Part shown: in pieces, positions 63,800 to 64,000 of the stretch
Position numbering within the stretch: the first letter of the stretch is position 1
How the letters are laid out: each line of letters starts with the position of its first letter
Assembly: GCF_044647545.1 (NCBI RefSeq)
Contig: NZ_CP172818.1
Source: Escherichia coli
GTDB taxonomy: Bacteria > Pseudomonadota > Gammaproteobacteria > Enterobacterales > Enterobacteriaceae
Length of the DNA: 64,000 nucleotides
Direction: 5' to 3' (one strand)
Program-made: the position numbers and the translations under genes
Notes under the pieces: generated by a model
What the model was told of the DNA's origin: nothing
Database searches by the model: none
What the model saw: the letters and a program-made list of their open reading frames with translations, nothing else

Positions 63800-64000
63800 A
63801 TGACCGAATCAACAACCTCCTCCCCGCATGATGCGGTATTTAAAACCTTTATGTTCACACCCGAAACCGCACGGGATTTTCTCGAAATACATTTACCAGA
63901 ACCACTGCGCAAGCTTTGCAACCTGCAAACCTTACGCCTGGAACCCACCAGTTTTATTGAAAAAAGTTTACGCGCTTACTACTCGGATGTTTTGTGGTCG
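63800..64000 (+). CDS. yfaD: Rpn-family recombination-promoting nuclease YfaD/RpnE, 5' end only (continues beyond window)
   Basis: ATG at 63800 opens [39 protein letters not shown]..., matching the YfaD N-terminus; truncated by the window edge. Confidence 0.75.

Follow-up and report, generated by a model that had tools for sequence, protein, structure and literature searches.

The stretch of Escherichia coli DNA analysed here (the window; 64,000 nucleotides of contig NZ_CP172818.1, assembly GCF_044647545.1) ends inside rpnE (yfaD), which is preceded by glpA, glpB, and glpC according to the open reading frame (ORF) list and the annotation of a collinear genome. The features at this end are as follows, in window coordinates:

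62417..63607, plus strand: glpC, the conserved upstream neighbour that anchors the locus (collinear-genome annotation and ORF list)
63618..63649, plus strand: a hairpin with a 12-bp stem followed by UUUUUG, 11 nt past the glpC stop codon (RNA fold −20.2 kcal/mol, z = −1.98)
63650..63784, plus strand: the glpC-rpnE intergenic region and presumed site of the rpnE promoter, to judge solely from the hairpin upstream of it
63785..63790, plus strand: AGGTGA, a Shine-Dalgarno-like AGGTG 10 nt 5′ of the ATG that overlaps the in-frame TGA (read from the sequence)
63800..64000, plus strand: the 5′ end of rpnE (yfaD), codons 1–67, cut by the window end (open frame, PF04754, NF007418)
63830..63832, plus strand: rpnE codon 11, GAT (Asp11), the equivalent of RpnA D11 (invariant in alignments of 6 and 33 proteins)
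63986..63988, plus strand: rpnE codon 63, GAT (Asp63), the first catalytic Asp of the PD-(D/E)XK motif (invariant in both alignments)

The 5′ end of rpnE and its surroundings

Past an in-frame TGA (63788–63790), the next start codon is the ATG at 63800, four codons on (...TGA CGG ACA ACC ATG ACC GAA...), so that the rpnE start is fixed by this stop codon. The same start is used by the RefSeq rpnE coding sequence (CDS) of NZ_CP033850.1, a genome 100% identical to the window over positions 57400–64000. From there, 67 open codons run up to base 64000. The 67-aa fragment scored 85.8 bits against PF04754 (Transposase_31/YhgA-like; E = 3.8e-24, profile positions 1–60 of 203), for which the Pfam gathering cut-off is 21 bits. 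Its best NCBIfam model was the RpnE equivalog NF007418 with 148.8 bits (the cut-off of 583 is unreachable from 67 aa), followed at lower scores by the RpnA model NF007361 (81 bits) and the general Rpn model TIGR01784 (48 bits). Residues 1–67 are 100% identical to residues 1–67 of K-12 RpnE. Taken together, these matches lie well outside what chance would give. An antisense ORF of 114 aa (63604–63948, minus strand) was dismissed because the plus-strand frame strongly matches the Rpn family. The window end holds 67 codons of a known gene, rpnE (yfaD), which belongs to the Rpn family of PD-(D/E)XK nuclease genes and occupies a known core-genome position. The original prediction, which saw an Rpn N-terminus in the last 200 bp and had the window end inside yfaD/rpnE, agrees on both points with the profile matches and with the 67 of 67 residues shared with K-12 RpnE, and its coordinates were exact. 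The 201 visible bases code for exactly the K-12 residues, and rpnE has already been described in detail.

How is rpnE set apart from its neighbours? The hairpin at 63618–63649 is likely the glpABC terminator, which would separate rpnE from that operon. A simple terminator scan made no call at this hairpin, though it is evident from the direct fold. A sigma-70 consensus scan of the glpC-rpnE intergenic region and of the rpnE gene returned 0 sites, so that consensus matching locates no rpnE promoter and does not recover the published internal one either. Rfam gave no match in the last 700 bases of the window.

Of 5,426 complete E. coli genomes, 5,421 contained the glpC-rpnE junction (601 bp, window 63400–64000). 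Every match was chromosomal, never on a plasmid, and covered both glpC and rpnE, with a median of one place per genome. In 84 genomes the match was at least 99% identical, and the listed matches at 100% are ST648-type and related strains such as NZ_CP033850.1. By local BLAST, the window is collinear with NZ_CP033850.1 at 99.95–100% identity and contains no large insertion. The collinear gene order begins with ccm, nap, eco, mqo, yojI, alkB, and ada, continues with ompC, rcsDBC, the ato genes, yfaP-A, gyrA, ubiG, yfaL, and nrdAB, and ends with inaA, glpQT, glpABC, and rpnE. This stretch thus holds repair and topology genes (alkB, ada, gyrA). No integrase, transposase, or insertion sequence (IS) is annotated across the NZ_CP033850.1 stretch collinear with the window, and for this reason the claim stands that the window has no recombination-associated gene other than rpnE. 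Within the same stretch, a homologue of yfaS (alpha-2-macroglobulin family; window about 36.8–41.3 kb, L002 34884–39398) is labelled a pseudogene in the NZ_CP033850.1 annotation, where a stop codon interrupts it.

A segment of 1,868 bp that encodes an MFS transporter and a LysR regulator is absent from the window between inaA and glpQ. This segment is present in 30 of the 30 nearest genomes among the matches listed, with flanks that are otherwise 100% identical. The deletion junction (window 56543–56555) falls within a short repeat or microhomology, CAGATAAA; K-12 shares this junction (yfaH region). A 501-bp query spanning the inaA-glpQ junction had no match above 97.0% identity in the 5,426 complete genomes. 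This pattern suggests either that deletion by microhomology has recurred or that a small patch here is recombinant.

The complete gene and its small partners in near-identical genomes

All rpnE sequence beyond codon 67 is read here from other genomes (proxy alleles) and not from the source strain. The rpnE gene of NZ_CP033850.1 is intact (936-bp CDS, 311 aa); a 198-bp CDS labelled "partial" adjoins it directly on the 3′ side, and the convergently oriented yfaU comes next. The 311-aa protein scored 717.6 bits against NF007418 (cut-off 583) and 294.3 bits against PF04754 (positions 1–202 of 203), its Transposase_31 domain covering residues 8–209. The whole 1,140-bp unit formed by rpnE and the downstream CDS, rpnESs, is at least 99% identical in 80 genomes. 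Between the K-12 and ST648-type alleles, codons 1–250 of rpnE differ by 12 synonymous and 3 non-synonymous changes, and the resulting dN/dS of 0.07 indicates that the nuclease domain is under strong purifying selection. In the window lineage, rpnE most likely continues as an intact 311-codon ORF. We infer that the source strain has the same downstream sequence as the proxy genomes, in which case its 311-codon ORF would end in ...DIPNCY-TAA and be followed in frame by AAGGAGAGATTAATG and the 61-codon rpnESs.

The active-site residues known from Rpn proteins (D11, D63, E82, Q84, R94, and the PDDEI motif) are all present in proxy RpnE. They are invariant in an alignment with K-12 RpnE, RpnA, RpnB, RpnC, and RpnD (6 proteins) and in one enlarged by 27 further homologues (33 proteins). 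In RpnA, Kingston et al. reported D11, D63, E82, Q84, and R94 to be required; RpnA-D11A lost every phenotype and RpnA-D63A had no activity in vivo or in vitro (PMC5350276). The PD-(D/E)XK catalytic residues are accordingly complete, with D11 and D63 in the window and the remainder in the proxy allele. Asp63 is the sole core catalytic residue within the window, the E82-x-Q84 half of the motif lying past its end.

An AF2 model built from the 33-sequence alignment had a mean pLDDT of only 60 (66–81 in the N-terminal core). Its secondary structure (H21–31, E40–47, E63–70, E76–84, H91–108, E116–123) follows the order H-E-E-E-H-E, which in this low-confidence model fits the alpha-beta-beta-beta-alpha-beta core of PD-(D/E)XK enzymes; D63 opens the second strand and E82/Q84 close the third. 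Foldseek searches of the PDB gave weak matches (best E = 0.019, TM about 0.2, none at E ≤ 0.001), and the top of this weak list is mostly PD-(D/E)XK enzymes: PaqCI, R.BspD6I, Card1, XisH, Cap4, BstEII, MspJI, and Kpn2I. The predicted fold is consistent with a PD-(D/E)XK core without proving it. A PDB sequence search with full-length proxy RpnE returned 0 matches, the published RpnA-S crystal structure being too diverged for detection by sequence.

Does the complete gene contain or adjoin a small partner ORF? The sequence AAAAGGAGAGATTAATG is present twice in the proxy locus (L001). The first copy, at rpnE codon 244 (...CAA AAG GAG AGA TTA ATG ACT...), forms AAGGAG-N7-ATG in frame with the ATG at L001 7130, predicts a 68-aa product, and aligns with M244 of RpnA. 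The second copy lies directly past the rpnE stop codon (TAA AAG GAG AGA TTA ATG ACT, ATG at L001 7349) and heads the 61-codon rpnESs. The in-frame internal ribosome-binding site (RBS) and start codon typical of the Rpn gene-within-gene layout are therefore found in the proxy genome, in a region outside the window. The C-terminal modules of rpnE and ypaA/rpnESs are diverged direct repeats (90% and 81% identical). In Pfam, the downstream 65-aa module had only a sub-threshold match to RepB_primase_C, and no DUF4351 or Rpn C-terminal model was found in it; NCBIfam placed it on positions 240–308 of the RpnE model. The original prediction had named two things to look for downstream, an intact ORF of about 300 aa and a small overlapping partner. 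The first is present as the 311-aa ORF of a genome identical over the last 6.6 kb of the window, and the second takes two forms in the proxy, the internal start and the downstream tandem duplicate. An early stop or an unrelated protein, the outcome that the prediction had set against itself, occurs in no close relative.

Both forms of the partner ORF are already published (Zhong et al. 2023). In that study, all five rpn genes had an internal promoter and start site each, and RpnES and YpaA (renamed RpnESs) were detected as proteins in K-12 by SPA tagging (PMC10400941). The short RpnS proteins, present at higher levels than the long RpnL nucleases, bound and blocked toxic RpnL and thereby stopped toxicity, SOS induction, and DNA cleavage (PMC10400941). 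The structure of RpnA-S is a dimeric three-helix bundle, and four-residue repeats in the first helix of RpnS differ among strains, their number setting RpnS-RpnL specificity (PMC10400941). RpnE likewise varies in how many four-residue repeats the first helix of its C-terminal domain carries: K-12 has 0 extra repeats, the window lineage has 3 (KLEG-LQKG-KVEG), and protein P0002 has 5. Further variants occur in Citrobacter, Salmonella, and Klebsiella homologues, and RpnESs carries 1 repeat.

The 3′ part of the locus also varies in its architecture, as seen in 40 genomes evenly spaced among 5,420. A second annotated feature lies 3′ of rpnE in 14 of the 40 (spans of 1,104–1,200 bp, differing by multiples of 12 bp), and the other 26 have one rpnE feature only (spans of about 845–969 bp), the duplicate having been lost or fused. 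One sampled genome (H90) matched only 56% of the locus. Among E. coli protein clusters, P0001 (361 aa) has a Gln codon where a stop would separate rpnE from rpnESs, and this read-through protein has two tandem antitoxin-type C-terminal domains. P0003 (304 aa) is a single-module allele in which the N-terminal domain is joined to an rpnESs-type tail. Both read-through fusions and single-module alleles were mentioned by Zhong et al. (PMC10400941). Finally, P0005, P0006, P0009, and P0010, from metagenome contigs of 1–2 kb, are mosaic Rpn proteins, for example an RpnE N-terminus with an RpnB C-terminal half or a foreign N-terminus with the remainder of RpnE; these could be products of recombination between paralogues or assembly chimeras.

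Activity of RpnE and the K-12 allele

Is RpnE an active nuclease? We know of no RpnE allele for which nuclease, toxin, or defence activity has been shown. The MG1655 record labels RpnE an "inactive recombination-promoting nuclease-like protein". Overexpressed K-12 RpnE was negative for recombination, toxicity, and SOS induction, with the long and short forms co-expressed (PMC5350276). RpnE may be a catalytically dead paralogue at a locus that is kept only for RpnE-S and RpnESs, which could serve, for instance, as orphan antitoxins to other Rpn toxins or to incoming ones. The three negative in vivo assays (PMC5350276) and the MG1655 annotation speak for this reading, and it fits the higher expression of RpnS over RpnL (PMC10400941) as well as the C-terminal modules, which are rearranged or single in about two thirds of the 40 sampled genomes. 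Because these modules vary to such an extent, the C-terminal part is what evolves. However, every active-site residue is kept, the nuclease domain is intact in nearly every genome and has the low dN/dS given above, and the constructs of Kingston et al. co-expressed the internal antitoxin (PMC10400941). Moreover, the K-12 allele that was assayed bears lineage-specific L107Q and P155L substitutions at otherwise invariant positions. We therefore regard a dead RpnE as unlikely, at about one chance in four.

Of the three non-synonymous differences that separate the K-12 and ST648-type alleles over codons 1–250, two are L107Q and P155L (codons 107 and 155 are L001 6719–6721 and 6863–6865 in the proxy; the K-12 sequence is L007). 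Position 107 is Leu (Ile in RpnD) and position 155 is Pro in RpnA–D and in all 27 other aligned homologues, and the window lineage, as read from the proxy genomes, keeps the ancestral Leu107 and Pro155, as do more than 5,000 other genomes. A 33-mer centred on the K-12 CTG codon (Leu155) was found in 356 of 5,426 genomes and its CCG (Pro155) version in 5,030. When 60 of the 356 were evenly sampled, all were K-12 laboratory derivatives (MG1655, BW25113, DH5alpha, C600, J53, JM109, and others) except the record EcN_Sk. The K-12 33-mer at codon 107 was found in 355 genomes, and 12 of 12 sampled were K-12-type strains; because it also holds two synonymous K-12 variants, this probe counts the haplotype and not Q107 alone. 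In these samples, the K-12 sequence at each site is thus nearly confined to K-12 derivatives, and the only RpnE that has been assayed is therefore an atypical allele. Neither substitution is mentioned in PMC5350276, in PMC10400941, or in a supplement.

These data raise the possibility that the "inactive" status of RpnE is an artefact of the K-12 lineage. The allele of the window lineage would then be an active nuclease toxin whose own antitoxin, RpnE-S, has three more repeats than K-12 RpnE, and RpnESs, with its one repeat, would be non-cognate. We put this forward tentatively, with the odds somewhat better than two to one against it. If true, the downstream RpnESs copy would be a spare specificity cassette and not a second antitoxin. 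As assays of RpnE have been confined to this atypical K-12 variant, the protein may yet have a toxin or defence role in natural isolates such as the window lineage. The residual novelty of the locus lies only in this comparison of the K-12 and window-lineage alleles.

Could rpnE instead be broken downstream in the source strain, so that the 67 codons head a dead gene? The source strain does differ structurally from all listed nearest genomes, sampled genome H90 matched only part of the locus, and Rpn genes do decay, as shown by the paralogue rpnD of K-12 (L010 5999–6919), a pseudogene by annotation that is interrupted by a stop at codon 104. An RpnD construct was nevertheless reported active by Kingston et al. 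(PMC5350276). Against a broken rpnE, about 80 of the 84 genomes with at least 99% identity at the glpC-rpnE junction keep that level across the full 1,140-bp unit, and 5,406 of 5,426 genomes cover at least 80% of that unit. A pseudogene in the source strain is accordingly very improbable.

Least tenable is the reading of rpnE as an insertion-sequence transposase and of the locus as a mobile element beside glpC: it draws on the RefSeq/PGAP product name ("ISNCY family transposase"), the title of NCBIfam NF007418, and the Pfam family name Transposase_31, yet the gene sits at one fixed chromosomal site in single median copy, a Pfam search revealed no DDE or other transposase domain, and Zhong et al. 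saw neither terminal repeats nor target duplications at rpn genes, nor any autonomous transposition of them (PMC10400941). A 13-nt inverted repeat with one mismatch (GATGTCAAAGGCC / GGCCTTTGATATC; left arm at window 63737–63749, right arm at L001 7564–7576) does bracket the rpnE-rpnESs unit. It is kept in K-12, and its right arm overlaps a terminator-like hairpin of yfaU. As candidate IS ends, this repeat was rejected, because 1.5 such repeats were observed against 1.0 ± 1.3 in shuffled sequences, which is the chance level. Neither the terminal inverted repeats and target-site duplication of an IS nor a variable location and copy number were found for rpnE. The RefSeq label "ISNCY family transposase" is misleading for this gene. 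The value of the present check is mostly negative in that no hidden mobile element and, in close relatives, no broken gene came to light.

Proposed working of the locus and known Rpn systems

What does the locus encode? With a probability of about 0.85, rpnE, which is among the five Rpn genes on the E. coli chromosome and lies between glpABC and yfaU, forms a gene-within-gene toxin-antitoxin module with a probable antiphage role and is not a transposase. The long product, RpnE-L, would combine an N-terminal PD-(D/E)XK DNA endonuclease domain with a C-terminal helical oligomerisation domain. The strong RBS and ATG at codon 244 would give RpnE-S, 68 aa that amount to the C-terminal domain alone, and ypaA/rpnESs (61 aa, one repeat), right after the stop codon, would supply a second small protein. 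If RpnE works like RpnA, RpnB, and RpnP2, RpnE-S would bind RpnE-L via its repeat-bearing helix and block the toxic nuclease, and RpnE-L may be released from RpnE-S under some infection-linked condition. This analogy would make RpnE-L an active toxin that RpnE-S holds back.

"Recombination-promoting" is a family label, and the Rpn family is now seen as comprising toxin-antitoxin and antiphage modules (PMC10400941). The original prediction had described the gene product as a recombination-promoting nuclease; its assignment to the Rpn family is borne out, and the recombination part goes no further than the label, K-12 RpnE having been negative in that assay (PMC5350276). In a PADLOC-DB 2.0.0 scan, RpnE had only a weak, unrelated match in its C-terminal tail (PDLC01084, "putative invertase", E = 2e-5). 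PADLOC-DB 2.0.0 has no Rpn model, and because of this the scan gives no support to RpnE as a defence protein.

The closest known system is that of K-12 itself, where RpnE (YfaD, b2244) and ypaA/rpnESs (b4543) are the same genes at the same locus, with glpC upstream and yfaU downstream. The first 201 nt of K-12 rpnE differ from the window at 2 synonymous positions. K-12 has the identical internal AAGGAG-ATG at codon 244 and the identical TAA-AAGGAG junction, and its downstream copy is annotated as the pseudogene ypaA. By contrast, RpnE is 299 aa long in K-12 and 311 aa in the window lineage, which according to the proxy genomes has the three additional repeats, Y311 in place of H311, and Leu107, Pro155, and Gln230 where K-12 has Gln, Leu, and Glu. 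The RpnESs proteins of the two lineages show I/M differences and carry an equal, single repeat.

Beyond this locus, the predicted core of RpnE, with an Asp at the start of strand 2 and an E-x-Q ending strand 3, would be shared with PD-(D/E)XK nucleases such as PaqCI, R.BspD6I, Card1, Cap4, and XisH, to judge from the weak Foldseek matches of a low-confidence model; the canonical motif has a Lys where RpnE has Gln. Among Rpn proteins, RpnA (YhgA) is 57–60% identical to RpnE, with the same domain order, the same active-site residues, and an aligned KE..M internal start (M244), but it has no four-residue repeats at the RpnE repeat position and no downstream duplicate. The activity of RpnA is demonstrated, whereas the nuclease role of RpnE-L is proposed by analogy: RpnA-L is a Mg-dependent, Ca-stimulated, non-specific DNA endonuclease that is blocked by RpnA-S (PMC5350276, PMC10400941). 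RpnP2, a plasmid-borne Rpn protein of ECOR13, belongs to the same family and has the same long/short gene-within-gene layout as rpnE. It is strongly toxic without its RpnS and guards against T-even phages (PMC10400941), in contrast to the chromosomal rpnE, which has no known phage phenotype.
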